From contig CAVRGP010000011.1 in the NCBI GenBank assembly GCA_963720755.1, forward strand, positions 416,001-480,000: a DNA stretch of 64,000 bases. Direction: 5' to 3'. A model generated the notes under the pieces. The model saw only the letters and a program-made list of their open reading frames with translations, had not been told where the DNA came from and made no database searches. The position numbers were made by a program, and so were the translations under genes. This stretch comes from an uncultured Chloroflexia bacterium. GTDB lineage: Bacteria > Chloroflexota > Limnocylindria > Limnocylindrales > CSP1-4. This document shows positions 16,313 through 35,508 of this stretch, piece after piece; positions within the stretch are counted from its first letter, which is position 1; each line of letters begins with the position of its first letter.

Positions 16313-17007
16313 CCACCCCGCCCCTTGACGGACTCCCGGCTGAGGACATCGTCGACGTCCGCCTGATCGAAGCGATGCACGCATCGGGTTGTCCGGTGTG
16401 TGCGGTCCGTGCGCGTTCGGAACGCGCGACGCTCGATGCGATCATCAACGAGCGCGTGCTCGACATCGGGTTCCGGGCCGAGCTCGAACGGAAACATGGT
16501 TTCTGCCGCCGGCACGTGGCGGCCCTCGTCGAGACCGACCGTCGCGAGACCGGCGGGATCCTCGGGTCGTCCATCCTGCTCGGCGCCGTCGTGGATCGGC
16601 GGACCGGGGAGCTTGGATCGGCGATCGGTGCGGGTGGTCGGACCGTTCGAGCCCGTGTCCGAGCCGCCCGACGCCGACCCCCATGTCTGGCGTGCACCCA
16701 GGGCGCGACCGGCGTCGATACCGCGATCGCCCGTCTCGCCGCCCGGTCGAGTGACCCCGCCTGGGCCACCGTCATCAGCCGGTCCGAGTTCTGTCTCGAT
16801 GACTTCCTCGCGCTCTGGGAGGAAGCGGCGTCCGAGCGCAGCTTCCAGGCGGTCGCGGAGGCGCAACTCGCCCGGTTCGCCGACCTGCGTCGACGGCTCG
16901 ATGGCTATGCCTACCACTCGAGCCATGACCGACGACACCTGTTGACCGAGGACGAACGGTCCGCGGCCGACGAAGCGACAGACGCCCTCGGCGGCGACCG
17001 GCGCTGA
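16309..17007 (+). CDS. Cys-rich DUF6062-like protein
   Basis: GCPVC, GFCRRH, CLAC and FCLDD motifs. ATGA overlap with the upstream gene. Confidence 0.7.
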   Translation: MTTPPLDGLPAEDIVDVRLIEAMHASGCPVCAVRARSERATLDAIINERVLDIGFRAELERKHGFCRRHVAALVETDRRETGGILGSSILLGAVVDRRTGELGSAIGAGGRTVRARVRAARRRPPCLACTQGATGVDTAIARLAARSSDPAWATVISRSEFCLDDFLALWEEAASERSFQAVAEAQLARFADLRRRLDGYAYHSSHDRRHLLTEDERSAADEATDALGGDRR

Positions 17008-17085: not shown

Positions 17086-20000
17086 ATGGTCGCGCCCGTC
17101 CGAGTCTCCGACCCACTCGCGCCGTTCTCACCGGCGGTCCGCGATTGGTTCGCGTCGAGTTTCGAGGCACCGACCGAGGCGCAGGCCCGGGGCTGGGCGG
17201 CCATCTCGAGCGGCCGGCACACGCTCATCCACGCGCCGACCGGGAGTGGCAAGACCCTCGCCGCGTTCCTGTGGTGCCTGGACCGTCTTGCCACGGATCC
17301 CAGTCCGACGCCGACGCGAGAGCATCCGGGGGCCGTCCGGGTCCTGTACGTCTCGCCGCTCAAGGCGCTGACCTACGACATCGAGCGCAACCTCAGGGCG
17401 CCGCTGACCGGGATCGCCCACGCCGCGGCACGCCTCGGCGAAGTCCCACCGGCCATTTCCGTCGCCAGCCGGACCGGCGACACCCCGACCGAGGAGCGGC
17501 GTCAGATCGCCCGGCGTCCGCCGGACATCCTGATCACGACGCCCGAGTCGCTCTACCTGATGCTGACCAGTGCGGCCCGAGAGGTGCTCCGTGCCGTCGA
17601 GTACGTCATCGTCGATGAAGTCCACGCCATCGCCGGATCCAAGCGAGGCGCCCATCTCGCCCTGAGTCTCGAGCGGCTCGATGCGTTGCGCCCCGAGGGC
17701 CGCTCGCCGATCCAGCGGATCGGGCTGTCCGCAACCCAGCGCCCGCTCGACACCATCGCCCGGTTCCTCGGCGGGCTCGGGCCGGACCGGGAGGTGGAGA
17801 TCGTCGATGCGGGCTCGCGCAAGCCATTGGACCTCCAGGTCATCGTCCCGGTGGACGACATGTCGGCGATGGGCGAGGTCCTGCCGCCCGACGAGCGACC
17901 CGGTGGGCCGGCCACCGGCCCGGACGCGCGGACCAGCATCTGGCCGGCCATCCACCCGCGGATCCTCGAGCTCATCCGGGCGCATCGCAGCACGATCGTG
18001 TTCACCAACAGCCGGCGCCTGTCCGAGCGGCTCGCCCAGCGACTCAACGAGCTGGCCGGTGAGGAACTCGTGCGAGCCCACCATGGGAGTGTCGCCAGGG
18101 AGCAGCGGCTGGAGATCGAGGAGGGCCTCAAGGCCGGACGCCTGCCGGCGATCGTCGCGACCTCCAGCCTCGAGCTCGGGATCGACATGGGCGCGGTGGA
18201 CCTGGTCATCCAGGTGGAAAGTCCGACGAGCGTCGCCCGCGGGCTCCAGCGCGTGGGTCGTGCCGGCCACCAGGTCGGGGCGCCCAGCAAGGGCGTGATC
18301 TTCCCGAAGTACCGGGGTGACCTGCTCGAGTGCGCGATCGTGACCCGTCGGATGCACGAAGGCGCCATCGAATCCACCCAGCTGCCGCGCAACCCGCTCG
18401 ACGTCCTCGCCCAGCAGCTCGTGGCGATGACCGTCATGGACAGCTGGTCGGTCGACGACCTGCTCGCTTGCGTCAGCCGGGCGGCGCCATACGAGACCTT
18501 GACGCGCGAGGTCCTGGAAGGTGTGCTCGGCATGCTCGCCGGCGCCTATCCGTCCGATGAATTCGCCGAGTTGAAGCCGCGGATCGTCTGGGATCGGGTG
18601 ACGGACCGCGTCGAGGGTCGGCGCGATGCCCGCGTCGTCGCCGTCACCAGTGGGGGCACGATCCCGGATCGTGGGCTGTTCGGCGTGTTCATGGTCGGCG
18701 AGGCGGGTACGCCCGGGCGACGCGTCGGCGAGCTGGATGAGGAGATGGTCTACGAGCTGCGGGTCGGGATGCATGGTGATGTCATCGTCCTGGGGGCCAG
18801 CAGCTGGCGAGTCGAGGAGATCGGCCGCGACCGGGTCACCGTCAGCCCCGCCCCGGGCGTCCCCGGCAAGTTGCCGTTCTGGCACGGCGATGCCGTCGGG
18901 CGGCCGATCGAACTGGGACGAGCGATGGGCGCCTTCGTCCGGGAGCTCGAGGCGGACCTCGGACGCGGCGTGACGGGTCGCCAAGCCGCCACCGACCGCC
19001 TCCGAGAGTCGCATGACCTGGATGAGCGAGCGGCCGACAACCTGCTGGCCTACCTCGAGGACGAACGCGCCGTCACGAGCGTGCTGCCGACCGACCGGCG
19101 GATCGTCGTGGAACGGTTCCGCGACGAGCTCGGGGACTGGCGGCTGTGCCTGCTGACGCCGTTCGGCGGACGCGTCCACGCGCCGTGGGCCCTGGCCCTG
19201 GAGGCGCGGATCGGGGAACGGCTCGGGCTGGAGGTCCAGACCATCTGGTCCGACGATGGGATCGCGATCCGTCTGCCGGAAGGGGACGCGCCGCTCGATG
19301 GCATCGAAGCGCTGCTGTTCCCCGACGCCGGCGAGATCGAGGACCTGGTCGTCGGCCGCCTGGCCACCTCCGCCCTGTTCGCCAGCCGGTTCCGGGAGAA
19401 CGCCGGCCGCGCTCTCCTGCTCCCGAGGCGACGGCCGGGGACGCGCACGCCGCTCTGGCAGCAACGCCAGCGTGCGGCCGATCTGCTCGCGGTCGCGTCC
19501 CGCTACGGCTCGTTCCCGATCCTGGTCGAGACCTATCGTGAGTGCCTGTCCGACGTCTTCGACTTGCCCGCACTGCGGGAGATCATGGCCGGCGTCGCCA
19601 GCCGGGAGATCGCCGTGCACGCGATCGAGACGGCCTCGGCGTCGCCCTTCGCATCGAGCCTCATGTTCGACTATGTCGCCGCCTACATGTACGACGGCGA
19701 CACGCCGCTGGCCGAGCGTCGCGCGGGCGCCCTGACGCTCGATCGAGATCTGCTCCGCGAGCTGCTCGGGCAAGAGGAGCTGCGCGAGCTGATCGATCCG
19801 GACGCGCTGGCCGACCTCGAGCTGTCGCTCCAGGCGTTGATCGACGAGCGGCGGGCGGCGACGATCGATGGCGTCCACGACCTGCTTCGACGGCTCGGCG
19901 ACCTGTCTTCGCCGGAGATCGCCGCCCGCGTCGAAGGCGGCGCGGAGGTGGCCGACGCGTGGCTCGACGAACTGGCTTCTGCACGGCGGATCGTCCGCAC

Positions 20001-21675
20001 CCGGATCGCGGGCGAGGACCGCTGGATCGCGGTCGAGGATGTCGCCCGCTTTCGGGACGGGGTCGGGATCGCCCCGCCGGTCGGCATCCCGGCGGCGTTC
20101 CTCGCTCCGGCGGTCGGCGCCCTCGATGGACTGTTGGCCAGATATGCGCGCACCCACGGCCCGTTCCTCACGCCCGACCCGAGCGGGCGCTGGGGCCTGC
20201 CGGGCGGGGTGGTCGGCGACGCGCTGGGCCGCCTGGAGGCGTCGGGGTCGCTGCTTCGTGGCGAGTTCCGTCCCGGAGGTGCGGAACGCGAATGGTGTGA
20301 TCCGGAGGTGCTTCGCCTGCTCCGGCGTCGCTCCCTGGCGCGACTCAGGCGCGAAGTCGAGCCGGTCGATCCGGCGGCACTCGCACGCTTCCTCCCCGAG
20401 TGGCAGGGGGTCGCTCCGGTCGGCCCGGAACGCGCGGTCCTCCGCGGGACCGCGGCTCTCGAACGCCTGGCCGAGGTCGTCGATCGACTGGCCGGGCTGC
20501 CGATCCCGGCGTCGGTCCTCGAGCGCGATGTCCTTCCCGCACGGATCCCCGGCTATCAGCCGCGACTGCTCGACGAGTTGGGTGCCCTCGGTGAGGTTGC
20601 CTGGGTAGGGCGGGGGAGTCTCGGCCGCGACGACGGGCGGATCGTGTTGGTCCGGCCGGGTCGGGAGATCCTCCGGCCGACCGGCCTGCCAGATGGGGTC
20701 GAGTCTCCCTCGGGGGTACGCCACGTGGCCATCCGCGAGCATCTCGCCGAGCGCGGTGCCTCGTTCTATCGAGAGCTGTTCGCTGCGGCGGGCGGCCATT
20801 CGGACCGCGAGGTGCTCGATGCCCTGTGGGACCTGGTCTGGGCCGGCGAAGTCACCAACGACACGTTCGCTCCGCTGCGCGCCTTGCGCTGGAAGCGAGC
20901 GGGCAGTCGTGGGTCGCCCCGCGGCCACGGTCGTCCCGGTCGACTCACGGCCCTTGGGCCACCGGAAGCAGCCGGGCGCTGGTCCCTGGTGACGGCGGCC
21001 CAGGCGACCGTCGGCGCAAGCAGAGTCCCGGCGGGCGGTCCGACCGAGCGCCTGCATGCCCAGAGCCTGGAACTCCTGGAGCGCTACGGGATCCTCACCC
21101 GCGACGCGGTCGCAAGCGAGGGGATCGTCGGCGGATTCGCCGCCGTCTATCCGGTCCTGCGGGCGATGGAGGACGCCGGGCGCATCCGCCGCGGTTACTT
21201 CGTCGATGGGCTCGGCGCCGCGCAGTTCGCCCTGGCCGGAGCGCTCGACCGGCTGCGAGCCGTGCGCGAGCCGGCGGACCCGACGGGGTCGGGTCAGGTC
21301 CATCTGCTGGCCGCCGCCGATCCTGCCAATCCCTATGGGGTCGCCCTGGCGTGGCCGCGCCGGGGCGAGGCGGACCGGCGTCCACTCCAGCGTGCGGCAG
21401 GCGCCTACGTCGTCCTCGTGGACGGCGTCGCGACGCTCTATCTCGAACGGGGAGGGGCGACGCTCCAGACCCTGCCCGCCGCCGACGAGCCCGCCACGGC
21501 GTCCGCGGCGGCAGGCGGACTCGGAGCGCTCGTCGCGGACGGACGGTTTCGCGACCTGGTGATCCGAAAGGTGGATGGCGACGACGTCGCGGCATCGCCC
21601 TTCCGCCCGCGGCTGCTCGATGCCGGATTCGTGGCCGGCTATCGCGGTCTCGTGTTCCGGACGGGCCGCGGCTGA
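17086..21675 (+). CDS. lhr: Lhr SF2 helicase, long form
   Basis: APTGSGKT, YVSPLKAL, DILITTPESLYL, DEVH, AHHGS, QRVGRAGH. Long C-terminus with RRGYFV.GLG and AAADPANPYG. 1529 aa. Confidence 0.95.
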   Translation: MVAPVRVSDPLAPFSPAVRDWFASSFEAPTEAQARGWAAISSGRHTLIHAPTGSGKTLAAFLWCLDRLATDPSPTPTREHPGAVRVLYVSPLKALTYDIERNLRAPLTGIAHAAARLGEVPPAISVASRTGDTPTEERRQIARRPPDILITTPESLYLMLTSAAREVLRAVEYVIVDEVHAIAGSKRGAHLALSLERLDALRPEGRSPIQRIGLSATQRPLDTIARFLGGLGPDREVEIVDAGSRKPLDLQVIVPVDDMSAMGEVLPPDERPGGPATGPDARTSIWPAIHPRILELIRAHRSTIVFTNSRRLSERLAQRLNELAGEELVRAHHGSVAREQRLEIEEGLKAGRLPAIVATSSLELGIDMGAVDLVIQVESPTSVARGLQRVGRAGHQVGAPSKGVIFPKYRGDLLECAIVTRRMHEGAIESTQLPRNPLDVLAQQLVAMTVMDSWSVDDLLACVSRAAPYETLTREVLEGVLGMLAGAYPSDEFAELKPRIVWDRVTDRVEGRRDARVVAVTSGGTIPDRGLFGVFMVGEAGTPGRRVGELDEEMVYELRVGMHGDVIVLGASSWRVEEIGRDRVTVSPAPGVPGKLPFWHGDAVGRPIELGRAMGAFVRELEADLGRGVTGRQAATDRLRESHDLDERAADNLLAYLEDERAVTSVLPTDRRIVVERFRDELGDWRLCLLTPFGGRVHAPWALALEARIGERLGLEVQTIWSDDGIAIRLPEGDAPLDGIEALLFPDAGEIEDLVVGRLATSALFASRFRENAGRALLLPRRRPGTRTPLWQQRQRAADLLAVASRYGSFPILVETYRECLSDVFDLPALREIMAGVASREIAVHAIETASASPFASSLMFDYVAAYMYDGDTPLAERRAGALTLDRDLLRELLGQEELRELIDPDALADLELSLQALIDERRAATIDGVHDLLRRLGDLSSPEIAARVEGGAEVADAWLDELASARRIVRTRIAGEDRWIAVEDVARFRDGVGIAPPVGIPAAFLAPAVGALDGLLARYARTHGPFLTPDPSGRWGLPGGVVGDALGRLEASGSLLRGEFRPGGAEREWCDPEVLRLLRRRSLARLRREVEPVDPAALARFLPEWQGVAPVGPERAVLRGTAALERLAEVVDRLAGLPIPASVLERDVLPARIPGYQPRLLDELGALGEVAWVGRGSLGRDDGRIVLVRPGREILRPTGLPDGVESPSGVRHVAIREHLAERGASFYRELFAAAGGHSDREVLDALWDLVWAGEVTNDTFAPLRALRWKRAGSRGSPRGHGRPGRLTALGPPEAAGRWSLVTAAQATVGASRVPAGGPTERLHAQSLELLERYGILTRDAVASEGIVGGFAAVYPVLRAMEDAGRIRRGYFVDGLGAAQFALAGALDRLRAVREPADPTGSGQVHLLAAADPANPYGVALAWPRRGEADRRPLQRAAGAYVVLVDGVATLYLERGGATLQTLPAADEPATASAAAGGLGALVADGRFRDLVIRKVDGDDVAASPFRPRLLDAGFVAGYRGLVFRTGRG

Positions 21676-21681
21676 TCCAGG

Positions 21682-22509
21682 ATGCCCGAGGGCGACACGC
21701 TCCACCGGACCGCAGCCGGGCTCCGACCGTATCTCGTGGGCCGGAAGGTCACGGCCGCGCGCACCGCCGGCCCCGGTCGGGTGCCCCAGGTCCACCGGAT
21801 CGTCGGTCGCGAGGTCATCGCGGTCGAAGCGATCGGCAAGAACCTGCTGATCCGGTTCGACGGCGGCCTGGAGATCCGGACGCATCTGCGGATGAACGGC
21901 TCGTGGCATCGGTACCGACCAGGCGAGCCCTGGCGACGGGCGCCTGCCCGGGCCCGCCTCGTGCTGGAGGTCCCCGGCGCCGTCGCCGTCTGCTTCGATG
22001 CGCCGGTCGTGGAGTTGCTCGAGCAACGAGCGGAGGGCCTCCACCCACCGCTCGGTGGCCTCGGTCCGGATCTCCTCGACCCGGCTGCCGACCTGGATGT
22101 CGTTGTTCGCCGGTTGCGGGATGCGTCGCGGGCCGATCTCGAGATCGGCGTGGCCCTGCTCGATCAACGTGCCACAGCGGGGATCGGCAACGTCTACAAG
22201 AGCGAGACCCTCTGGATCGAACGCGTCTCCCCGTTCGCGCCGGTCCGCGACCTCGACGACGGCACGCTCCGGCGGCTGGTCTCGACCGCGGCCCGGCTGC
22301 TCCGGGCGAACGTCTCGACTGGACACGGGCCGGAACGGATCACGACCGCAGGTGACCCCGGCGCCCCCGGTCCCCTGTATGTCTATCGTCGGACCGGGCG
22401 CCCGTGCCGGCGATGCCGGCGACCGATCTCGAGCCGGCGCCAGGGGACGGATCTGCCTCGGACCACGTACTGGTGTCCGACCTGTCAGGACCCGGGAGAG
22501 GCCGGCTGA
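21682..22509 (+). CDS. nei: Fpg/Nei-family DNA glycosylase
   Basis: MPEGDT N-terminus, GKNL, HLRMNGSW, LLDQ..AGIGNVYKSE, zinc finger CRRC..CPTCQ. Confidence 0.93.
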   Translation: MPEGDTLHRTAAGLRPYLVGRKVTAARTAGPGRVPQVHRIVGREVIAVEAIGKNLLIRFDGGLEIRTHLRMNGSWHRYRPGEPWRRAPARARLVLEVPGAVAVCFDAPVVELLEQRAEGLHPPLGGLGPDLLDPAADLDVVVRRLRDASRADLEIGVALLDQRATAGIGNVYKSETLWIERVSPFAPVRDLDDGTLRRLVSTAARLLRANVSTGHGPERITTAGDPGAPGPLYVYRRTGRPCRRCRRPISSRRQGTDLPRTTYWCPTCQDPGEAG

Positions 22510-23468
22510 TCGGGTGTCCGTCCGATGCCCCACCGGCTGGCCAGCCAGGCTCGTGCCCCCGCGAGCCAATGTCGCCATGTCGCCGGCCGGAAGATGTCCA
22601 GTGGATCTTCCTTGCGGTAGAACCACGGAACGGTCGCCCACAGGTACACGAGGAAATCGAGCCGCACCGGCCGCGCCCCGAACCCGAACAGCGCCTTCAT
22701 CTGGATGATCGTCAGGGGCAGGGTCAGGAGGCTGAGACCGACCGACACGACCAGCCAGAAGACCCCCCACTGTTTCGCTCGCCCGGGCAGGATCGGCCAG
22801 AACAGGACCGGGACCCATTTCATCCAGGTCGCAAGCGCCCAGAGCAACCCTCCAAGCCGGGGGCCGGTGAACTGGGCCGCCCAGAGCATCAAGGTGAGCT
22901 GCAGGTTGATGTTGCCGGTGTCCAGATTTGCGCCGAACGGGAAGGCCAGCGCGGCGACGATCAGCGCGGTCGTCAGCGGACGACGTCGATAGGCCCAGTG
23001 GATGGTCCACAGGAGCAGGAGGATCGTGCCGACCCGCCACACGAACCAGGCGACATCCCAGGGCAGCATCGCCCACGGGACGAACAGCGGCAGCATCCAG
23101 GGGGCATAGACGTACGGCAGGAATGGCCCGACCGGGTGGTAGGGGTCGCCGCCGTTGAGCCACAGCCGAACCCCGGCCCAGTAGGCCCGGGCATCGGCCC
23201 CGCCCGCGTCGCCCCGGGCGATCAGCCCGGACAGGACCAGCGCGAAGCTCAGGCTCAGGAGCACGATCGCCGCGACTCGCCGTGGATCGCGGAGGCGGAA
23301 GACCTCGCGGCGGAGGGCTCGTCGGAACACGCCCGCGCGTCGGCGTGTTCCGCGATCGATATGCTCGGACAGATCGACCACGATCCGACCACGGCCGCGG
23401 GCACTGCCTGGGACGGGCTGAAGGCCGTTTCCCGGCTGCAGGCCGTTCGGGGGCACGGACGCGCTCAT
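22485..23468 (-). CDS. GT87/DUF2029-family membrane glycosyltransferase
   Basis: GADARAYW, DPY, YVYAPW, NLDTGNIN and multiple TM helices. Start uncertain. Confidence 0.75.
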   Translation of the reverse strand: MSASVPPNGLQPGNGLQPVPGSARGRGRIVVDLSEHIDRGTRRRAGVFRRALRREVFRLRDPRRVAAIVLLSLSFALVLSGLIARGDAGGADARAYWAGVRLWLNGGDPYHPVGPFLPYVYAPWMLPLFVPWAMLPWDVAWFVWRVGTILLLLWTIHWAYRRRPLTTALIVAALAFPFGANLDTGNINLQLTLMLWAAQFTGPRLGGLLWALATWMKWVPVLFWPILPGRAKQWGVFWLVVSVGLSLLTLPLTIIQMKALFGFGARPVRLDFLVYLWATVPWFYRKEDPLDIFRPATWRHWLAGARAWLASRWGIGRTPDQPASPGS

Positions 23469-23526
23469 GGCACCGGCATTCTCGCATGCGTGGTCGCCCC
23501 GGTCGCCCCGGTATACTCCGCCGGAC

Positions 23527-24363
23527 ATGGCCGATGGAACCGTCATCATCATCGGCGGCGCCGAGGACAAGGTTCGCGACCGCGTCATCCTGAGCCGATT
23601 CGTCGAGCTTGCAGGTGGCGAGAAGGCCACGATCGCCGTCATCAGCACCGCCTCATCTCTCGGGCTCGAAGCCGGGGAGCGGTACCGCGCGGTCTTTGGT
23701 GAGCTCGGCGTGAAGCACGTGCGGCCGCTCCATGCGGTGACCCGTCCACAGGCCAACGACGAGGCGGCCGTGAGCGCCGTCCGCGATGCGACCGGGGTCT
23801 TCCTGACCGGTGGGAACCAGCTGCGGCTGTCATCCACGCTCGGCGGCACCCGCCTGGCCGAGGCTGTCCTGGACCGGTTCCAGAACGGTGCGGTGGTGGC
23901 CGGCACATCGGCGGGCGCATCGGCGATGTCCAGCCACATGATCGCGTTCGGCGCCTCCGGGGCGACCCCGAAGCACCGGATGGCCCAGATCGCAGCGGGA
24001 CTGGGCGTCCTGCCCGGCGTCATCGTCGACCAGCATTTCCAGCAACGCAACCGGCTCGGTCGGCTGCTCAGCCTGATCGCCCAGAACCCCAGCCTGCTCG
24101 GCCTCGGGGTCGATGAGGACACTGCCGGGGTCGTCGGCCCGGATCACATCATGGACGTCATCGGGCGCGGCTCGATCACGGTGGTCGATGGTTCCCACTC
24201 GGAGACCGATGCCTGGGAGGTCCATGGGCACCGGCCACTCATGATCAGCGGTGTCGTGCTCCACTCGTTGCCTGCCGGCTACCGCTTCGACCTTCGCCAT
24301 CGGGAGCGCGTCGCCACCCCAGCGCTGCATGCACTGTCGGGCGGCGAGGCCGCCTCGAGCTAG
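23527..24363 (+). CDS. cphB: cyanophycinase
   Basis: IIGGAEDK, TGGNQLRL, GTSAGA nucleophile motif, IVDQHFQQRNRLGRL, GVDEDT. Confidence 0.93.
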   Translation: MADGTVIIIGGAEDKVRDRVILSRFVELAGGEKATIAVISTASSLGLEAGERYRAVFGELGVKHVRPLHAVTRPQANDEAAVSAVRDATGVFLTGGNQLRLSSTLGGTRLAEAVLDRFQNGAVVAGTSAGASAMSSHMIAFGASGATPKHRMAQIAAGLGVLPGVIVDQHFQQRNRLGRLLSLIAQNPSLLGLGVDEDTAGVVGPDHIMDVIGRGSITVVDGSHSETDAWEVHGHRPLMISGVVLHSLPAGYRFDLRHRERVATPALHALSGGEAASS

Positions 24364-24398
24364 CCCACGGCGGGACCGCCGATAGATGGAGGGAACTC

Positions 24399-27257
24399 GT
24401 GGCTGACACCGTGGCTGGCTCCCCATCCGCTCCCCGCAAGAAGCGGGCCAGTCGGGCCAAGGCCACGCCGCCGTCTGGTCCGGCGCCCACCTTGCGGATC
24501 CTCGAGACGCGCGTGCTGCGCGGCCCGAATTACTGGGCTCGCGAGCCGGTCATCCGTCTCCTGCTCGATCTTGGTGTCCTCGAGGCGTACCCGTCGAACC
24601 TCCTGCCGGACTTCGCGGATGCGCTCGTCGCGCTCCTGCCGACGCTCGAGGACCACGCCTGCTCGCTCGGCCGGCGCGGCGGTTTCGTCACGCGGCTTCG
24701 CGACGGGACCTGGGTCGGCCACATCGCGGAGCACGTCGCCCTGGAGTTCCAGAACCTCGCCGGGACCGATGTCCGGCACGGGAAGACGCGGGCGGCCGGG
24801 CCGGTCGGCCAGTACAACTGCATCTACGAATATCGCGAGGAGGCGGTCGGCCTCGAGGCCGGCCGGATGGCGGTGGCGCTCGTCAATCACCTCGTCGCCC
24901 CCGACGACCCATCGGTCTTCTTCGACTTCGCGCCGGAGATGGAGCGACTGATCCGGCTCGCCGAGCGGCAGGCATTCGGGCCATCGACCCAGGCCCTGAT
25001 CGATGAGGCGGTCAGCCGCGACATCCCGTTCTTCCGGCTGGATCGCCACTCCCTCGTCCAGTTCGGCCACGGTGTTCATCAGCAGCGGATCCGGGCGACG
25101 ATGACCTCGCTCACCTCGGCCATCGGGGTCGATGTGGCGTCGGACAAGAGCCTGACCAATCGCCTCCTCGACTCGGCCGGCTTGCCCGTGCCCAGAGCGG
25201 ATGTGGTGGATACGGAGGAAGCCGCGGTCGCCGTGGCGCGGCGGCTTGGCTTCCCATGCGTCCTGAAGCCGCTCGACGGCAACCACGGCCGCGGCGTCCA
25301 CCTCGATCTGCAGTCCGACGATGAGGTCCGCGCCGCCTTCCACGGAGCGCTCGCCCAGAGCCGGAGCGGCGACGTGGTCGTGGAAACGTACGTGGCCGGC
25401 AACGACTACCGCTGCCTGGTCATCGGAGGCAAAGTGGCGGCGATCGCCGAACGTGTCCCGGCGTCGGTCGTCGGGAACGGTGAGCACTCCATCCGAGCCC
25501 TCGTGGACATCGCCAACAGCGACCCGCGGCGGGGGATCGGCCATGAGAAGGTCTTGACCCGGATCAACGTCGACGAGGCGGCCGAGGAGCTGGTCCGTGG
25601 CCAGGGCTTCGAGCTGGATGACACCCTGCCGGATGGCGTCAGGGTCAAGCTGGCCCTGACCGGCAACATGTCGACCGGCGGGACGTCGATCGACCGGACC
25701 ATCGAGGCACATCCCGACAACGTCGAGATCGCCGAGACCGCGGCTCGGATCGTCGGGCTCGACGTGGCCGGCATCGACTTCATCTGTCCCGACATCGCCA
25801 CGCCCGTGCGGGAGACGGGTGGCGCGATCGTCGAAGTCAACGCGGCGCCCGGATTCCGGATGCACACGCACCCGACCGAAGGCGAGCCGCAATACGTCGC
25901 CCGGCCGGTCATCGACTCGCTCTTCCCGTCGGGCTCGTCGGCCCGGATCCCGATCATCGCGGTGACCGGCACCAACGGCAAGACGACGACCGTCCGGATG
26001 ATCGCCCACATCCTCAAGCTGATGGGTCGCCGGGTCGGGATGACGTCGACCGACGGCATCGTGGTCGACGGACGGCTCATCAAGAAGGGCGACATGTCCG
26101 GACCGAAGTCGGCCCAGATGGTGCTCCAGAACCCGACCGTCGATACGGCGGTCTTCGAGGTCGCCCGTGGCGGCATCCTGCGCGAGGGGCTCGGATACGA
26201 CCGCAACGACGTCGCGGTCGTGACCAACGTCACCGGCGACCACCTGGGCCTCGGTGGCATCGATTCGATCGGTCAGTTGGCGAATGTCAAGGGTGTCGTC
26301 GTGGAGGCCGTCCCTCGGTCCGGGACGGCGGTCCTCAACGCGGACGACAACCACGTTTACCGGATGGGCCGGCACTGCGCCGGCCGGGTGGTCCTGTTCA
26401 GCATGGCCACGGCCAAGGGCGAGGATGGCTACGACCGGGTGGACGGCCACACGTCGCGTGGCGGCGCCGCATTCCGGGTCGAAGCCTCCGACGAAGGTGA
26501 GCTCATCGTGCTTCGCCTCGGCTCCCGGACGATGCCGGTCCTGTACACCCACCTCATCCCGGCGACCTTCGGCGGCCGGGCCCGGATGAATGTGGCCAAT
26601 GCCCTGGCCGCCGCCGCGGCCGCCTGGGCGGCTGGAGCTCATCTCCACGATATCCGCCAGGGCCTGCGGACCTTCTCGACGTCGTTCTTCCAGGCGCCCG
26701 GGCGCCTGAACCTCGTCGACGTCGGCGGCGTGCGGGTCGTGATCGACTACTGCCACAACGTGGACGGGATGCGCCAGCTGGCCGACTTCGTGAGCCGGAT
26801 GATGGTCGACGCACCAACGAAGTCCGGGCGGATCGGCGCAGCCGCGACGGCGTCGCGATCCGGCCGAGCCATCGGGGTCATCGGGATCCCGGGCGACCGG
26901 CGCGACGACGACCAGCGGCAGTACGGGGCGATCGCCGCCAGCGCGTTCGACGAGATCATCGTGCGCGAAGACAAGAACCTGCGCGGCCGCACACCCGGCG
27001 AGACTGCCGTCAATGTCATCGACGGCGTTCGCGAGGCGAAGGCCGATGGGTCGGCGCGGGTCGGCCGGGCCGACAAGGTGCTCGACGAGATGACCGCCGT
27101 CCGGGCGGCCCTGCGCCGGGCGATCCCGGGCGACCTCGTCGTGTGCTGCGTCGACGATGCGGTCGGGGTGTACCGGGAGGCCATGGCCGCGGCCGGGTCG
27201 ACCGGGGGCGGATCCGCGTTCGCCGATCCCGGTGAACTCGAAGCACCGGAAGGATAA
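24399..27257 (+). CDS. cphA: cyanophycin synthetase CphA1
   Basis: N domain (RGPNYW, Cx19HxxEH), ATP-grasp G domain (GPST, KPLDGNHGRGV, EVNAAPGFRMH) and Mur-ligase M domain (VTGTNGKTTT, EVARGG, PGRLN). Confidence 0.95.
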   Translation: MADTVAGSPSAPRKKRASRAKATPPSGPAPTLRILETRVLRGPNYWAREPVIRLLLDLGVLEAYPSNLLPDFADALVALLPTLEDHACSLGRRGGFVTRLRDGTWVGHIAEHVALEFQNLAGTDVRHGKTRAAGPVGQYNCIYEYREEAVGLEAGRMAVALVNHLVAPDDPSVFFDFAPEMERLIRLAERQAFGPSTQALIDEAVSRDIPFFRLDRHSLVQFGHGVHQQRIRATMTSLTSAIGVDVASDKSLTNRLLDSAGLPVPRADVVDTEEAAVAVARRLGFPCVLKPLDGNHGRGVHLDLQSDDEVRAAFHGALAQSRSGDVVVETYVAGNDYRCLVIGGKVAAIAERVPASVVGNGEHSIRALVDIANSDPRRGIGHEKVLTRINVDEAAEELVRGQGFELDDTLPDGVRVKLALTGNMSTGGTSIDRTIEAHPDNVEIAETAARIVGLDVAGIDFICPDIATPVRETGGAIVEVNAAPGFRMHTHPTEGEPQYVARPVIDSLFPSGSSARIPIIAVTGTNGKTTTVRMIAHILKLMGRRVGMTSTDGIVVDGRLIKKGDMSGPKSAQMVLQNPTVDTAVFEVARGGILREGLGYDRNDVAVVTNVTGDHLGLGGIDSIGQLANVKGVVVEAVPRSGTAVLNADDNHVYRMGRHCAGRVVLFSMATAKGEDGYDRVDGHTSRGGAAFRVEASDEGELIVLRLGSRTMPVLYTHLIPATFGGRARMNVANALAAAAAAWAAGAHLHDIRQGLRTFSTSFFQAPGRLNLVDVGGVRVVIDYCHNVDGMRQLADFVSRMMVDAPTKSGRIGAAATASRSGRAIGVIGIPGDRRDDDQRQYGAIAASAFDEIIVREDKNLRGRTPGETAVNVIDGVREAKADGSARVGRADKVLDEMTAVRAALRRAIPGDLVVCCVDDAVGVYREAMAAAGSTGGGSAFADPGELEAPEG

Positions 27258-27269
27258 GGATCGTCGCGA

Positions 27270-29033
27270 TCAGGCCCGGCGCGGCCGTCCCTGCATCCTC
27301 GGGACGAGGGTCGTGAGCTCGGTTGCCACATCGATCGGTCGTGCGCCCATCTCGGCCAGCAGCTCGAACACGCCGTCGCGATCCTCGTGGCACATGAGCA
27401 CGATCACCCTGGCGGCGTCCGGGCGGGCTCCGTGGATGCCACCGCCGGCTGCCCCGTTGAGTTCGGCCCGGAGCGCATCCGTCTCGCTGTCGTAGATCGG
27501 GACATCGGCCGGGTCGATCCCACCGGCGACGACCCCGACGAGGATCTCGCCCACCACCAATTCGGCGGTCCGTCCGCGGAGGTACCGAAGAGTCTGCTTG
27601 ATGGCCACCCGTTGCGCCCGCTCGGCCGCGATCCGGCCGATCCCACGGAGCGTGTCATCGGGGCGGTCGCCGGCCGTCCCGATGATCGCGGTGATCGGTG
27701 CGGCCCGACCCGCGGCGCCGCCGGCGATCCCCTCTGCGACGTCGAGGACGGCCCCGACCCCGGCCTCGTTGTGGGCGAAGTCGACGATCACGGTCCGGGC
27801 TCCGATCCGGTACAGGTTGAGCCGCCCCGGCGAGCGTTCCGCGCTCGGCGCGAAGTCGGCCAGCCCATCGCGGACCTCGGCGATCGAGGCCCCGAGGCCG
27901 CGGGCGCCACCGGCGGCGGCCATCGCGTTGGCGACGTTGTGGCGGGCCAACCCCCCGATCGTGATCGGAACCTCGACGACATCGACGATCGGCGTCTCCG
28001 ATGCCCCGTCGGCTTCGATGATCGTCCCGGCTCGGACCAGGTAGGCGCGACCGCCGCGCGCACGATGGCGCCGAACCACATCCGACCCGTCGCCATCCAT
28101 CGTGAACAGCGCGACCTTCGCCTTCACCCGGCGGGCGACCGCGGCGACCAGGGCGTCGTCGGCGTTGAGGACCACCCAGCCGTCGGCCCGGGTGATCCGG
28201 CAGACCGTCGACTTGACCTCGGCCAGCTCCGGTAGCGTGTGGATCCCCTGCAGGTCGAGGTGGTCGGACGAGACGTTGGTCAGGATGCTGGCGTCGTTCG
28301 ACTCATAGCCCATGCCGCGCAGGACGATCCCGCCGCGGGCCGTCTCCAGGACGGCCACGTCCACATCGCTCCGGGCCAGGATCTGGTGAGCGCCACCGGG
28401 CCCGGTCCAGTCCCCCTTGTCGACGATCCGCTCATCGACGAGTACCCCGTCCGAGGTGGTCGTTCCGACGTGGTGCCCGGCCACCAGGAGGATGTGCGTG
28501 ATCATCCGGGTCACGGTGCTCTTGCCGTTGGTGCCGGAGATCGAAACGACCGGGACCCGGCGCTCGGCATCGCGCACCCACTCGGGTGGGGTCGTGCGGG
28601 CCGCCACGATCCGCTCGGTCCACCGCGTGACGAGGCGCTCCTGGGCGCCGGTCAGCCGCGCCGTCTTCGACGGCGACACATCGCGCGCCGCCAGGGCAAG
28701 GGCCGCCTCGGTCAGCGTCATCGCCCGCTCGGCCCCGGACCATGGGAACGTGATGATCCAGTGACCCGGGTCCGATGAACGATGGACCGCCACCCCGCCC
28801 TTGCCCTCGTCGTGATCGACGCGCAGGCGACGGATCCAGGCCACGACGGCGGCCACGCCATCCGGTTGGTCACGAGCCCGGACGTCGGCCCCAAGGTGGA
28901 CGAGGGCGTGGCGCCCGGGGTCGCGCTGCCCATACCACGTTCGACGCCGGCCTGAAGCCAGCTCGACCTTGACCACCGGCTCGAGCCGGTAGACGTTCGG
29001 GCCCTCCAGCAGGCGGGTCTCGATGAGGCGCAC
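27270..29033 (-). CDS. CphA paralogue: N-domain-like start + Mur-ligase M domain, no ATP-grasp domain
   Basis: MRLIETRLLEGPNVY resembles the CphA start (LETRVLRGPNYW). It then carries SGTNGKST, TTSDG, GDWTGPGGA, ETARGG, TNVSSDHL, VLNADD, PGRLN, DFAHN, GDR. No KPxDGN or EVNxxPG motifs. Confidence 0.85.
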   Translation of the reverse strand: MRLIETRLLEGPNVYRLEPVVKVELASGRRRTWYGQRDPGRHALVHLGADVRARDQPDGVAAVVAWIRRLRVDHDEGKGGVAVHRSSDPGHWIITFPWSGAERAMTLTEAALALAARDVSPSKTARLTGAQERLVTRWTERIVAARTTPPEWVRDAERRVPVVSISGTNGKSTVTRMITHILLVAGHHVGTTTSDGVLVDERIVDKGDWTGPGGAHQILARSDVDVAVLETARGGIVLRGMGYESNDASILTNVSSDHLDLQGIHTLPELAEVKSTVCRITRADGWVVLNADDALVAAVARRVKAKVALFTMDGDGSDVVRRHRARGGRAYLVRAGTIIEADGASETPIVDVVEVPITIGGLARHNVANAMAAAGGARGLGASIAEVRDGLADFAPSAERSPGRLNLYRIGARTVIVDFAHNEAGVGAVLDVAEGIAGGAAGRAAPITAIIGTAGDRPDDTLRGIGRIAAERAQRVAIKQTLRYLRGRTAELVVGEILVGVVAGGIDPADVPIYDSETDALRAELNGAAGGGIHGARPDAARVIVLMCHEDRDGVFELLAEMGARPIDVATELTTLVPRMQGRPRRA

Positions 29034-29042
29034 GTTCCGGCG

Positions 29043-29070
29043 AGGATAGCAAGCCGCCGGAGGCTAGACT
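29043..29070. promoter_or_regulatory. back-to-back -10 elements for two divergent leaderless genes
   Basis: TATCCT (minus strand, 29043-29048) is 9 nt before the GTG at 29033. TAGACT (plus strand, 29065-29070) is 7 nt before the ATG at 29078. Confidence 0.5.
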
Positions 29071-29077
29071 GGACGTC

Positions 29078-30325
29078 ATGACCATCAGCCCGACCGATGC
29101 CTCGATGCCGTCCCCGCTCGAGCTCGGTGCGCTGCAGGAAGCGATCGCCGCCGACCTGCCCGCATACCTGGCCGACCTGAAGGACCTCGTGAGCATCGAT
29201 TGCGGGAGCTACACCCCCGACGGCGTCGATGCCGTGGGCCGCTGGGTGCGTGCCTTCGTGACCGGTCTCGGAGCCGAGGTGGAGGTTCGGCCGGATCCTT
29301 CCGGACGGCTCGGCGCGACCCTGATCGCGACCTTCCATGGCCAAGCCGACGGACCGCGGGTCCTCCTGATCGGGCACATGGACACCGTCTTCGACCCGGG
29401 GACCGTCGCCGATCGACCATTCCGGATCAGCGATGGCGTGGCCTACGGCCCGGGGGTCACCGACATGAAATCGGGTTTGCTGGCCGGCCTGTACGCCATC
29501 AAGGCCATCATCGCGGACCGCGGCGGGCTGCCCTTCGAGCGACTCGTGTTCGTCGCCAACCCGGATGAGGAGATCGGGTCGCCGACCTCGACGCCGCACA
29601 TCCGGGAGGTGGCCGCCGACAGTGACGTCGCGCTCGTTCTCGAATGCGCGCGCGCCAACGGAGACATCGTGTCGTCCCGCAAGGGGATCCTGGATCTGCG
29701 TCTCGTGGTCGAAGGTCGGGCCGCCCACGCCGGGGTCGAACCCGAGAAGGGCCGGAGCGCGATCGTCGAGGCCGCTCGGATCGTCGGCGAGATCCATGCT
29801 CTCAACGGTCGCTGGCCGGACGTCACCCTCAACGTCGGTCTGATCACCGGCGGCACTCGTCCGAACGTCGTCGCCGAACGGTGCGCGCTCGAGGTCGACC
29901 TGCGGGCGACGTCACGAGCGGCGCTCGAAGCCGCCGAATCGGAGATCAGGCGGATCGCCGACTCCACGGTCGTGCCGGACACGACGGTCACGTTCGAGCC
30001 GATGGCCCGCTGGTGGCCGATGGAGAAGCTGGAGCGGAGTGGCCGGCTCGTGGAGCACGCCCAGGCCGTTGCCGCCGAACTCGGTTTCACGATCGCCGAT
30101 GCCGCCACCGGCGGGGCCTCCGATGCCAATACGACGGCAGGCATGGGGATCCCGAGCCTCGATGGCCTGGGTCCGATCGGCGGCAGCGACCATGCCCCGT
30201 CCGAATACCTCGAGATCGATTCCATCGTGCCCCGGACGACCCTTCTGGCGGGCCTGCTCCTGGCCATCGCCGGGGACCCCGACATCCCTGGTTGGCGTTC
30301 CGACCGTCCGGCCATCGGCGGCTGA
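29078..30325 (+). CDS. M20-family metallopeptidase (carboxypeptidase G2-like)
   Basis: GHMDTVF, GPGVTDMKSG, DEEIGS, GRAAHAG, GGASD, DGLGPIG..HAPSE. Confidence 0.92.
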   Translation: MTISPTDASMPSPLELGALQEAIAADLPAYLADLKDLVSIDCGSYTPDGVDAVGRWVRAFVTGLGAEVEVRPDPSGRLGATLIATFHGQADGPRVLLIGHMDTVFDPGTVADRPFRISDGVAYGPGVTDMKSGLLAGLYAIKAIIADRGGLPFERLVFVANPDEEIGSPTSTPHIREVAADSDVALVLECARANGDIVSSRKGILDLRLVVEGRAAHAGVEPEKGRSAIVEAARIVGEIHALNGRWPDVTLNVGLITGGTRPNVVAERCALEVDLRATSRAALEAAESEIRRIADSTVVPDTTVTFEPMARWWPMEKLERSGRLVEHAQAVAAELGFTIADAATGGASDANTTAGMGIPSLDGLGPIGGSDHAPSEYLEIDSIVPRTTLLAGLLLAIAGDPDIPGWRSDRPAIGG

Positions 30326-33251: not shown

Positions 33252-34103
33252 TTGAGCGGTGTCGCGATCTTCACGGATTCCGCGTCGGACATGGATCCGG
33301 ACCAGGCCGCCGCAGAGGGGATCAGGATCGTCCCGCTGATGGTGAACTTCGGCAGCGAGAGCTTCCGGGCGGGTGTCGACTTGTCGACTGCCGCCTTCTG
33401 GGAGCGGATGACCGCGCCAGACGCCCCGTTCCCAACGACCGCCGCGAGCTCGCCGGGCGATTTCAAGTCCGCCTACGAGGCCGCCTTCGGGGATGGCGCC
33501 GACGCGGTCGTGTCCGTCCACGTGGCGGGAACGTTGTCCGGAACGATCAAGAGTGCCCAGGTCGCCCGGGACATGCTGCCCGACCGGGAGATCCACATCG
33601 TCGACTCGCAAGGCGCATCGATGGCGGAGGGGATCCTCGCGAGGATGGCCGTCCAGATGGCCGCCGACGGCCGGGCGCCGGCCGACATCGCCGAGACGCT
33701 CGAGGAGCGGGCGACGGACATCGTCATCTACCTCACCCTCGAGACGCTCGAGTACCTGAAGAAGGGCGGGCGGATCAGCGGCGCCCAGGCCGCGCTCGGC
33801 ACGCTCTTGTCGGTCAAACCGATCATCCGCGTCCAGGACGGGGTCGTCGCCACGATCGACAAGGTCCGGACCAGATCGAAGGCGCGCGAGAGGATGCTCG
33901 AGCTGATCTGCGAGCGTCCGATCGAGCGGCTCGCGATCCTGCATACGATGAGCCCGGACGTGGAGTCCTTCCGGGACGATGTCATCAGGCGGGCTTCCGG
34001 AAGCCTCGACCCGGCTGACGTGACGATCGATCTGGTCGGTGCATCGGTGGGGCCGCACCTCGGTCCCGGATGCGTGGGAGCGGCGATCCTGTACCGCGCC
34101 TAG
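33252..34103 (+). CDS. DegV-family fatty-acid-binding protein
   Basis: IFTDSASD, LSGT, IVDSQ, LEYLKKGGRI, LLSVKPI, HLGPG. Confidence 0.92.
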   Translation: MSGVAIFTDSASDMDPDQAAAEGIRIVPLMVNFGSESFRAGVDLSTAAFWERMTAPDAPFPTTAASSPGDFKSAYEAAFGDGADAVVSVHVAGTLSGTIKSAQVARDMLPDREIHIVDSQGASMAEGILARMAVQMAADGRAPADIAETLEERATDIVIYLTLETLEYLKKGGRISGAQAALGTLLSVKPIIRVQDGVVATIDKVRTRSKARERMLELICERPIERLAILHTMSPDVESFRDDVIRRASGSLDPADVTIDLVGASVGPHLGPGCVGAAILYRA

Positions 34104-34242
34104 GGTTGCCGCTGGGTTGCGGGCAGGTTGCCGATCGGGGGCTATACTGCGGGATGGCCGTGCGCCCCGTGGGGTCGTCCGGGAGACGACCCAGACCGAT
34201 GGCGATGCAGGTGATCGCCCGACACGTGAGGACACCCATCAG

Positions 34243-35508
34243 ATGACCACCGAGCAAGTCGCTGCGCAGATCAACGTTTGGGAAGTGGCCCAGCGACAGT
34301 TCGATCTAGCCGCCGAACGGCTTGGCCTGGACGAAGGCATGCGCCTCGTCCTGCGCGAGCCGCGACGCGAGTTCACCGTCCATTTCCCCGTCCACATGGA
34401 TGACGGATCCGTCCAGGTCTTCACTGGCTATCGAGTCCAGCACAATCTGGGCCGAGGGCCTGCCAAGGGCGGCATCCGCTACCACCAGAATGTCTCTCGG
34501 GACGAAGTCAAGGCCCTGGCGATGTGGATGACCTGGAAGTGCGCGGTCGTCGGGATCCCCTACGGGGGCGGCAAGGGCGGCGTCATCGTCGACCCCAAGA
34601 AGCTCAGCCAGAAGGAACTCGAAGGCCTGACCCGCCGGTACTTCACCGAGATCGAGATCCTGATCGGCCCGGAGAAGGACATCCCGGCGCCGGACGTCAA
34701 CACCAACGCCCAGATCATGGCCTGGATGATGGATACCTATTCCATGCATGCCGGCTACACCGTTCCCGGTGTGGTGACCGGCAAGCCGATCAGCCTGGGC
34801 GGGTCGGAAGGACGGAATGAGGCGACCGCCCGCGGTTGCGTTTACACCGTCGTCGAAGCGGCCCGTCACCTTGGCCTGGATCTCACGACGGCGCGAGCCG
34901 CGGTCCAGGGCTTCGGCAATGCCGGCTCGATCGCCGCCCGTTTGATCGGCGAAGAGGGTGCCACCGTCGTGGCCGTATCGGACTCGACCGGCGGGATCCA
35001 CGATCCGTCCGGACTCGATATCGCCAAGGTCGTGGCCTGGAAGCAGGAACATGGGACCGTCCAGGGGTTCCCGGGTGCGACCGATATCACGAACGCGGAA
35101 GTGCTTGAGATCGACTGCGAGATCCTCATCCCCGCCGCCCTCGAGAACCAGATCACGTCACGGAACGCCGGCAACGTGAAGGCACGATTGGTCGCCGAAG
35201 CGGCCAACGGCCCGACCACCCCGGACGCCGACGAGATCCTGTTCCGCAACGGCGTCTTCCTCGTCCCGGACATCCTGTGCAACGCCGGTGGCGTGACAGT
35301 CAGCTACTTCGAGTGGGTCCAGGACCTCAACCGTGATCACTGGAGCGAGGAGGTCGTCAACGCCAAGCTCAAGGAGATCATGGTCAAGGCGTTCGACGAG
35401 ACCCTGGACATGGCCAAGCGCGAGAAGGTGAACATGCGCACGGCCGCCTATCTCGTGGCGGTCAAACGAGTCGCAGATGCGATGGAGATGCGCGGCCTCT
35501 ACCCGTAG
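34243..35508 (+). CDS. gdhA: glutamate dehydrogenase (Glu/Leu/Phe/Val family)
   Basis: GPAKGGIRY, MTWKCA, GGGKGG, DIPAPDVNT, VQGFGNAG, EAANGP, NAGGVTVSYFEW. Confidence 0.95.
   Translation: MTTEQVAAQINVWEVAQRQFDLAAERLGLDEGMRLVLREPRREFTVHFPVHMDDGSVQVFTGYRVQHNLGRGPAKGGIRYHQNVSRDEVKALAMWMTWKCAVVGIPYGGGKGGVIVDPKKLSQKELEGLTRRYFTEIEILIGPEKDIPAPDVNTNAQIMAWMMDTYSMHAGYTVPGVVTGKPISLGGSEGRNEATARGCVYTVVEAARHLGLDLTTARAAVQGFGNAGSIAARLIGEEGATVVAVSDSTGGIHDPSGLDIAKVVAWKQEHGTVQGFPGATDITNAEVLEIDCEILIPAALENQITSRNAGNVKARLVAEAANGPTTPDADEILFRNGVFLVPDILCNAGGVTVSYFEWVQDLNRDHWSEEVVNAKLKEIMVKAFDETLDMAKREKVNMRTAAYLVAVKRVADAMEMRGLYP

Follow-up and report, generated by a model that had tools for sequence, protein, structure and literature searches.

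What is a shortened relative of cyanophycin synthetase doing beside a complete one? The question is raised by the stretch of DNA analyzed here (the window), 64,000 nucleotides of contig CAVRGP010000011.1 (assembly GCA_963720755.1, positions 416,001 to 480,000 of the forward strand) from an uncultured Chloroflexia bacterium. In the window, which has a G+C content of 70% and comes from a 3.0-Mb genome that is 93.6% complete, a cyanophycinase gene (cphB) and a gene for cyanophycin synthetase 1 (cphA1) are met from the opposite strand by a gene for a protein of 587 amino acids (aa), which in turn diverges from a gene for an M20 metallohydrolase. To our knowledge, cyanophycin synthesis is thought to need a single enzyme, CphA1, and CphA2 is the only reduced paralogue that has been described. 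Profile searches and a predicted structure identify the 587-aa protein as a CphA1 without its G (ATP-grasp) domain, in which the packing of the N domain against the Mur-ligase-type M domain is retained. The gene and its parts are:

27270..29033, minus strand: CphA paralogue of 587 aa without a G domain (N + M), GTG start
28584..29033, minus strand: reduced CphA1-type N domain, residues 1-150, without the Cys/HxxEH metal site
27339..28571, minus strand: Mur-ligase-type M domain (core and lid), residues 155-565
28515..28535, minus strand: P-loop GTNGKST, residues 167-173, aligned with the CphA1 P-loop (495-501)

The initial annotation had described a CphA paralogue that starts like an N domain, lacks the ATP-grasp domain and keeps intact M-domain motifs, and this description is borne out by the Pfam matches, by a reading of the motifs and by 40% identity to the M domain of the neighboring CphA1 (366 columns). 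The N-terminus reads VRLIETRLLEGPNVY where the neighboring CphA1 has RILETRVLRGPNYW; residues 1-155 contain neither Cys nor HxxEH, so that the Cx19HxxEH site is missing, and none of the ATP-grasp families of Pfam matches the protein. The motifs GTNGKS, ETARGG, DHL, PGRLN and DFAHN are all present. PF08245 (Mur_ligase_M) scores 72.2 bits (cut-off 24), while PF02875 (Mur_ligase_C) reaches 26.6 bits, slightly below its cut-off of 28.4; the latter family is matched by all 37 aligned relatives (E 0.001), and the predicted structure of the paralogue aligns with the lids of both CphA1 and MurE. TIGR02068 scores 373.8 bits, below its cut-off of 850 and over model positions 473-841 only, against 104 bits for the best MurE model, and the five best solved relatives are all CphA1 structures (7lg5, E 3e-70).

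Homology of the N region to that of CphA1 was established profile to profile only: PF18921 matched neither this region of the paralogue alone (E 10) nor any of the 37 relatives (E 0.001), and a profile of these relatives aligned with a CphA1 N-domain profile over 130 columns (hhalign 98%, E 3e-13). The stretch that bears Cx19HxxEH in CphA1 is a loop in the paralogue family. An AlphaFold2 model, built on an alignment of paralogue relatives, has a mean predicted local distance difference test (pLDDT) score of 90.7 and a predicted template modeling score of 0.92, and is low only at residues 30-47, which are predicted to be disordered (pLDDT below 50 at residues 30-36 and 38-47). When the model was used as a Foldseek query, CphA1 came first (E 1e-36). 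With VIA-align, residues 1-563 of the model were superimposed on residues 1-877 of chain 7wae_A (Z 39.5, root-mean-square deviation 2.6 Å, 502 residues) and the model reached Z 41.8 with 7txv_A, CphA1 structures giving Z 37-42 overall. In these structural alignments, 502-507 residues of an 870-residue CphA1 chain are covered, residues 1-565 of the model spanning chain residues 1-877. Of the G domain, a short stub that precedes the ATP-grasp core is all that aligns; the core itself is absent. The retained N-to-M packing matters because a cyanophycin analogue has been located in the space that separates the N domain of CphA1 from its M core (PMC9427784).

Both the hidden Markov model scan (374 bits with TIGR02068) and the comparison of the AlphaFold model with CphA1 (Z 37-42), which had been suggested as checks along with the initial annotation, came out in favor of a CphA identity. 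The same figures dispose of a ligase of the FolC, MurC-F or CapB type, an identity that we considered and rejected: CphA1 is closer both by profile score (374 versus 104 bits for the best MurE model) and by structure, where the best non-CphA fold is MurE with Z 26 (Mur ligases 23-26).

The paralogue is not an isolated oddity. A representative search returned many proteins of 530-600 aa that align with it over their full length at 33-45% identity; within the host's family identity is 58-83%, and in a sister family about 45%. A second subgroup of these short forms has additional sequence that can be aligned with the beginning of the CphA1 G domain, ahead of the ATP-grasp core (hhalign 96.9%), and the short form looks to have been derived from an N-G-M ancestor by loss of that core. 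In a FastTree phylogeny of 134 M domains, rooted on the MurE of the host genome itself, the 73 CphA1 M domains make up the starred clade, and the short forms branch outside it as two groups (38 and 21 rows); row L075_7582, labeled CphA1 by the position of its P-loop, is a tandem short form. A quick IQ-TREE phylogeny of 65 rows agrees in placing the short forms outside the CphA1 M domains. We also note that the partner CphA1s of each short-form subgroup cluster in separate clades, which is what joint inheritance or joint transfer of the pair would produce.

Could the paralogue be a recent copy of the neighboring cphA1 from which the G domain was deleted? This was rejected: joining short-form subgroup 1 with its partner CphA1s costs 111 log-likelihood units (approximately unbiased test, p 2.7e-6, for a group named after the first tree had been seen). 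The trees argue instead for an old, conserved family that lies outside all CphA1 M domains. A separate case is P0222 (567 aa), which has a remnant ATP-grasp match (CPSase_L_D2, residues 76-127) and an M domain that nests within the CphA1 clade, and which must therefore have been truncated separately and more recently than the old short family, to which it does not belong.

Curated libraries assign the short forms no function. In the source records they are called 'Mur ligase family protein' or, wrongly, 'cyanophycin synthetase', and the protein atlas holds only unnamed Mur-ligase clusters of Chloroflexota and Actinomycetota. DUF4938 (PF16292) of Pfam matches one branch of short forms (P0210 with 102 bits; P0262 with 31 bits, slightly below the cut-off of 32). 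In Terrabacter (L090, 6911-9187) the short-form open reading frame (ORF) is 758 aa long with a TPR_5 match at residues 633-753, and may be either a fused form or an over-long ORF; TPR_5 is listed in 12% of one actinobacterial atlas cluster.

Is this family part of cyanophycin metabolism? In the window the order is cphB (plus), cphA1 (plus), a 12-bp gap, the paralogue (minus), a 44-bp spacer and the M20 gene (plus):

23467..24363, plus strand: cphB, cyanophycinase (S51); TIGR02069 265.2 bits (cut-off 126.6), PF03575
24399..27257, plus strand: cphA1, full N-G-M cyanophycin synthetase 1; TIGR02068 1117.7 bits (cut-off 850)
27258..27269, no strand: gap of 12 bp between the convergent stop codons of cphA1 and the paralogue, whose ORFs end at 27257 and 27270
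29034..29077, no strand: divergent spacer of 44 bp between the paralogue and M20 genes, with two TAnnnT hexamers
29078..30325, plus strand: M20 (carboxypeptidase-G2-like) metallohydrolase; PF01546 98.4 bits and PF07687 80.9 bits, both above their cut-offs

The TIGR02069 and TIGR02068 scores, together with matches of cphA1 to PF18921 (Cyanophycin_syn N), ATP-grasp families, PF08245 and PF02875, confirm the initial assignment of cphB and of a full N-G-M CphA1, and the Cx19HxxEH pattern is seen in the cphA1 translation. The true start of cphA1 may lie downstream of the GTG at 24399, the conserved N domain beginning at about residue 32. The paralogue had been said to meet cphA1 head-on, 12 bp after its stop codon; the distance is right, but the two genes are convergent and meet tail to tail at their 3' ends. 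The gap has one weak 5-pair stem flagged in it, and no convincing terminator was found there.

Linkage was surveyed in a class sample of 151 genomes, 75 with a match and 74 with the paralogue. In 70 of the 74, cphA1 is on the same contig as the paralogue, and in all 70 it is on the opposite strand; the matched segments lie within 1.5 kb of each other in 64 and within 10 kb in 70. These counts include three unpublished genomes (G087, G096 and G123), without which the same-contig figure is 67/71, and no conclusion depends on these three alone. The sister family has the same cphA1/paralogue arrangement despite the paralogue identity of only about 45%. Cyanophycinase is found above its cut-off in 73 of the 151 genomes, and those host-family genomes that have no paralogue also have no cphA1 and no cyanophycinase; in them the Lhr, Nei-like, M20 and AzlC genes are still in order, with other genes in the gap. 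In a phylum sample of 301 genomes, matches were obtained in 39, in 35 of them twice; the rows listed pair a short with a full-length open frame, and they add a further family with the same convergent pair.

Outside the class, a genome-wide scan gave 20 loci with the G-less form, 15 of which also hold a full cphA1. Linked loci include Kribbella (cphA1 about 5 kb away) and Terrabacter (about 1 kb). In an Actinomycetota and a Thermomicrobiales metagenome-assembled genome (MAG) the short form adjoins cphA1 convergently, with cphB, and in Luteimonas, Lysobacterales, Steroidobacteraceae, a gammaproteobacterium and Plesiocystis the order cphB-cphA1-short form runs on one strand. In four of these same-strand loci the ORF ends are 2-9 bp apart and the flanks consist of unrelated housekeeping genes. 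Of the five loci without cphA1, three are at contig ends or on contigs shorter than 3.2 kb; cphA1 lies 7.6 kb further on in one of the others and on another contig in the last, and a check of the five genomes recovered cphA1 in all of them (three above the cut-off, two in pieces). On this genomic evidence, the paralogue is functionally bound to the cyanophycin genes. The survey of neighborhoods proposed with the initial annotation had named the paralogue, M20 and cphAB together: the link with cphA1 holds (70/74 in the class, 15/20 outside it), and that with M20 was seen only in the class.

Is the paralogue likely to be an enzyme? In TeCphA1, ATP and Mg are contacted by K499, T500, T522 and E558 (P-loop and Mg) and by R731 and H748 of the lid (PMC9427784), and the alignment places K171, S172, S194, E230, R404 and H421 of the paralogue at these positions. 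K171, E230, R404 and H421 are invariant in 37 diverse family members, as are G167, T168, N169, K171 and T173 of the P-loop. There are 51 columns that are at least 85% conserved with the same residue in CphA1 and in the short forms. Shared conservation of catalytic columns is what selection for catalysis would leave in an enzyme, and not what a relic would show, and we conclude from the alignments that the paralogue is probably active. A synthetase turned into a cyanophycin-binding regulator, granule protein or scaffold would be a non-catalytic alternative, and one with some precedent, since CphA2 shows that CphA domains can persist in inactive form (PMC10273328) and the N domain of the paralogue has itself lost the metal site; given that the Lys of the P-loop, the Glu that binds Mg and the Arg and His of the lid are all invariant and shared with CphA1, we consider it very improbable. 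In one Thermomicrobiales short form (L045, 6926-8683) the P-loop reads ATNGKT instead of GTNGKT, the Lys being kept.

Other positions set the short forms apart. Four residues that are conserved in CphA1 are replaced: S571 (92% conserved in CphA1), R835 in GDRRD (88%), F850 (89%) and D858 in KED (85%). The short forms have three conserved residues of their own, G214 (86%), R239 (88%) and Y484 (93%), the last in an insertion before LRGR. Two of the lost CphA1 residues fall in lid motifs that would correspond, in MurE, to the part that holds the amino acid being added. The pattern suggests that the paralogue and the CphA1 M domain have different substrate specificities.

The opposing view would be that the chemistry is the same and that the paralogue is an extra Arg-adding module, which would speed up loading or repair bare-Asp ends and may dock onto CphA1 oligomers in place of an M core. 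The match of fold and N-M arrangement to CphA1, the sharing of all ATP- and Mg-binding residues and the strict co-occurrence with cphA1 are all compatible with this, and the M core of CphA1 contacts the G cores of other protomers (PMC9427784). We nevertheless regard it as unlikely, if a serious contender, because the short forms have lost four residues that 85-92% of CphA1 M domains conserve and have gained three family-specific ones, because the deep split from CphA1 suggests a separate role kept for a long time, and because a complete M domain is already present in the partner CphA1.

What is the role of the M20 enzyme? Its score with NF004788 (glutamate carboxypeptidase) is 288.3 bits against a cut-off of 349, and it stays below the cut-off of every curated subfamily. 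The closest structure is carboxypeptidase G2 (CPG2; 1cg2, E 2e-39, residues 20-395), of which it keeps the aligned HMDTV, D-x-K-G-G, DEE, E and H motifs. We take these to be the metal ligands. The protein has no obvious signal peptide. Beta-Asp-Arg is an N-acyl-arginine, with the type of bond that is cut by M20 deacylases and by CPG2. In the class sample, M20 occurs in 71 of the 74 paralogue genomes and on the same contig in 69, always divergent from the paralogue and within 1 kb of it in 67. In a second, M20-centered sample, the paralogue lies within 1.5 kb in 56 of the 69 loci with at least 2.5 kb of upstream sequence. The cphB-cphA1-paralogue-M20 block is all that the host's family and the sister family share locally.

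The known enzymes for this step are scarce in the class. The initial annotation had noted that the window holds neither IadA nor IaaA, and the absence extends to the genome: nothing of the IaaA, IadA or CphZ type scores above its cut-off anywhere in the 93.6%-complete assembly. The M20 protein itself matches none of the Asparaginase_2, isoAsp_dipep and AstE/AspA-type families. IadA was found in 0 of the 151 class genomes, and IaaA in two of the 74 that bear the paralogue. More widely, about a quarter (27%) of cphA1 genomes have neither iadA nor iaaA (PMC9974463), and CphZ, a dedicated dipeptidase found in 2023, is a desuccinylase relative (PMC9974463). We put M20 forward as a tentative candidate beta-Asp-Arg dipeptidase, an assignment that its sequence and setting leave with somewhat less than an even chance.

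Taking these lines together, we propose that the 587-aa protein is an accessory side-chain ligase of cyanophycin metabolism with an altered choice of substrate, a reading whose chances we judge to be evenly balanced. The paralogue would bind a cyanophycin or poly-Asp chain in the cleft between its N domain and M core, as CphA1 does, and would then use ATP to form an amide bond at the side-chain carboxylate of an Asp residue. In the cluster it would be the third component, next to CphA1 and CphB. Either the amino acid that it adds or the acceptor is probably not the one used by the CphA1 M domain. Because it has no ATP-grasp core, the paralogue cannot be expected to extend the poly-Asp backbone. 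M20 would act as an N-acyl-amino-acid amidohydrolase on beta-Asp-Arg or on the product of the paralogue itself.

The two enzymes might also work on a small molecule: the ligase would join Asp to Arg, or to another amino acid, to give a beta-aspartyl dipeptide or a primer for CphA1, and M20 would hydrolyze the same compound. Ligase and hydrolase do stand back to back across 44 bp, and the first priming steps of CphA1 are very slow (PMC9262961). This is improbable in our view, for a dipeptide synthase would hardly need the polymer-holding N domain and N-M cleft that have been retained, the CphA1 of the window has the primer-making Cx19HxxEH site, and in other phyla no M20 stands beside the gene. 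Alternatively, the G-less ligase and M20 could form a charge/discharge pair on cyanophycin side chains, in which M20 would strip residues from the polymer or from dipeptides, and the N+M ligase would reload bare poly-Asp without making new backbone, the amino acid that it adds perhaps not being Arg. Stripping is conceivable because the side-chain Arg is N-acylated and has a free alpha-carboxylate, the bond type of CPG2-like enzymes. Such a pair, which would make for a rechargeable or chemically distinct cyanophycin, strikes us as distinctly unlikely.

Several points count against an accessory ligase of altered specificity acting with M20. The co-located CphA1 has a complete M domain, so that no activity is obviously missing, and the argument for altered specificity is drawn from positions conserved differently in the two groups and from Mur-ligase motifs. 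A 538-aa member (TIGR02068 361 bits) in one Chloroflexota family with genomes of about 6 Mb is megabases away from cphA1 in the one case where the two share a contig, and in one Sphaerobacteraceae MAG cphA1 is on a different contig. The unlinked 538-aa form adjoins proS, proC and a gene for a 420-aa membrane protein. This unlinked position, and a conserved fabG/inhA-like pair upstream in Actinomycetota, would fit a Mur-type ligase for some other peptide or polymer that is near cphA1 by chance. That the linkage to cphA1 recurs in at least four phyla, whether convergent or operonic, that the paralogue is absent together with cphA1 and cphB, and that it co-occurs with cphA1 in every genome checked makes membership in an unrelated pathway highly improbable.

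The points against a cyanophycin role for M20 are weightier. M20 orthologues (58-66% identity) persist with azlC in eight host-family genomes in which neither cphA1 nor the paralogue nor a cyanophycinase above its cut-off was found, and in the host's family M20 is part of a conserved backbone beside azlC. No M20 stands beside the paralogue at the loci examined in other phyla, and no M20 relative was found beside cph genes outside the class among the 80 best related loci; these are close relatives, all but two with Chloroflexota-type titles and none shown to be outside the class. M20 is near-complementary to IaaA (PF01112), with M20 in 33/44 and 45/50 genomes of two families and 1/49 of a third, against 2/44, 0/50 and 45/49 for IaaA, yet these counts, of which those for IaaA include four unpublished genomes of the third, IaaA-rich family, amount to about three family-level contrasts among kin. 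The initial annotation had suggested that M20, divergent from the paralogue, could be part of the cyanophycin system; the divergence is confirmed (69/74), and an exclusive tie is not, since M20 persists without cph genes and was seen with the paralogue in this class only.

M20 could accordingly be a general N-acyl-amino-acid or peptide hydrolase that owes its place to inherited synteny, in keeping with its score below every curated subfamily cut-off. We give this a probability just short of even. Its adjacency and divergence are kept in the sister family without other local synteny, the paralogue is close by in 56 of 69 M20-centered loci, and almost none of the cph-bearing genomes in the class has one of the known dipeptidases, all of which speaks against such a general hydrolase. 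Persistence in genomes without cph genes has a counterpart among the known cyanophycin dipeptidases, which are also common in non-producers (PMC9974463).

Some of the loci surveyed have features of their own. Downstream of and overlapping the unlinked 538-aa form (L202, 7448-10317; L203, 6828-9694) is a gene for a protein of 417-423 aa with C-terminal hydrophobic stretches, which has a weak archaemetzincin-like match (25.9 bits, cut-off 145) and no HExxH motif. The possibility that this 423-aa protein is a split-off G domain was rejected, as it has no similarity to CphA1. In Luteimonas (L064, 2622-11118) the cphB-cphA1-short block stands between a GATase/TrpD-like pair and an indole-3-glycerol-phosphate synthase gene, and looks to have been inserted into a row of trp genes. 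At L094 (3379-4542) an Amidohydro_1 protein, which may be a candidate IadA-type dipeptidase, is encoded on the same strand upstream of cphB-cphA1-short. In three Actinomycetota loci (L036, L042 and L090) the short form follows genes for SURF1, a MoaA-like radical SAM protein, DUF3099 and two short-chain dehydrogenases/reductases (fabG/inhA-like).

The 44-bp spacer had been taken for a divergent promoter region, of which the length stands, whereas a scan for sigma-70 consensus promoters gave no site in it. Two hexamers do occur in it: the minus strand reads TATCCT at 29043-29048, 9 nt upstream of the paralogue's GTG, and the plus strand reads TAGACT at 29065-29070, 7 nt upstream of the ATG of M20. 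When seven related spacers are aligned, five of the six positions of TATCCT (T, A, T, C and T) do not vary, most of the spacers retain TAGACT, and the GTG is conserved. The conserved TAnnnT hexamers resemble -10 elements and may serve as promoters of the two genes; at 9 and 7 nt from the start codons they would suggest leaderless transcripts or very short leaders, and they support the starts as called.

Beyond M20 come genes for AzlD, AzlC, a major facilitator superfamily (MFS) transporter, DegV and Gdh, in agreement with the azlCD, MFS and gdh genes initially noted; as parts of the system azlCD, MFS and gdh were rejected, not being kept beside the block in the sister family. The DegV-family gene (33252-34103) precedes gdh, whose ORF as listed (34039-35508) overlaps it. 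The family alignment of Gdh begins at residue 78, so that the real start is probably further downstream. On the other side (17086-22509) are genes for a 1529-aa Lhr-type helicase (DEAD, WH_Lhr, DEAD_assoc) and then an Fpg/Nei-like glycosylase, which are kept in relatives both with and without cph genes. A 2119-aa ORF on the strand opposite the Lhr gene (17128-23487) has no Pfam match and is probably an artefact of high G+C. Other genes near the locus (14579-17007 and 36186-37289) encode a histone-deacetylase-family protein (577 aa), a DUF6062 protein and an AAA_26/DRTGG protein.

Searches of the literature outside subscription journals and supplements, with term look-ups in PMC10206079 and PMC9974463, brought up neither a G-less CphA nor a cyanophycin dipeptidase of the M20 family. 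The paralogue would be a third, widespread form of CphA that keeps only the side-chain half. It stands beside cphA1 in Chloroflexota, Actinomycetota, Gammaproteobacteria and Myxococcota, and appears to be older than the spread of the present CphA1 M domains. If it adds a different residue or reloads poly-Asp, the view of polymer composition changes, and it could become a tool for tailored cyanophycins. M20, for its part, is a concrete candidate for the dipeptidase that is missing where both iadA and iaaA are absent.

To relate the two proteins to known systems, we compared them with the enzymes that they most resemble. The beta-Asp-Arg hydrolases found at some cyanophycin clusters are CphZ/AotO (M14), a metallo-amidohydrolase (PMC9974463), IadA and IaaA; M20 differs from these in fold family and matches none of the three. 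PMC10206079 does not list M20 with its candidate substitutes, and the term occurs in neither PMC10206079 nor PMC9974463. Carboxypeptidase G2 (1CG2) is its best solved relative, although M20 does not reach the glutamate carboxypeptidase cut-off (288 versus 349). For the paralogue, one curated family to compare is DUF4938, a 'Domain of unknown function' that in one branch of the short forms extends over the N region into the beginning of the ligase domain; neither the window paralogue nor 35 of the 37 aligned members match it at E 0.001. MurE and the other Mur ligases share with the paralogue the three-layer ATP-dependent amide-ligase fold, its motifs and PF08245, but they have a UDP-binding N domain where it has that of CphA, and they are more distant by score (104 versus 374 bits).

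CphA2, which is cyanobacterial (PMC9262961), is likewise a reduced CphA1 paralogue that works beside CphA1. The reduction is, however, the opposite one: in CphA2 the G domain is active while the M domain is truncated and inactive (PMC10273328), whereas in the paralogue the G domain is gone and the M domain is of full length, with its lid, and looks active. CphA1 (7LG5, 7LGQ, 7TXV, 7WAE) is the closest of all, with the same N-domain fold, M core, M lid and N/M placement and the same P-loop, Mg-binding Glu and lid Arg and His, and its gene, like cphB, is linked to that of the paralogue. What separates the paralogue from CphA1 is the missing ATP-grasp core, without which it should not be able to elongate the backbone, the TIGR02068 score of 374 against 850, the replacement of S571, R835, F850 and D858, and the missing Cx19HxxEH peptidase site, which is present in about 80% of CphA1s and is tied to primer-independent synthesis (PMC9262961). 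By these defining features the paralogue is neither a CphA1 nor a CphA2, and the comparison indicates that its mode of action is most likely that of the M half of CphA1.

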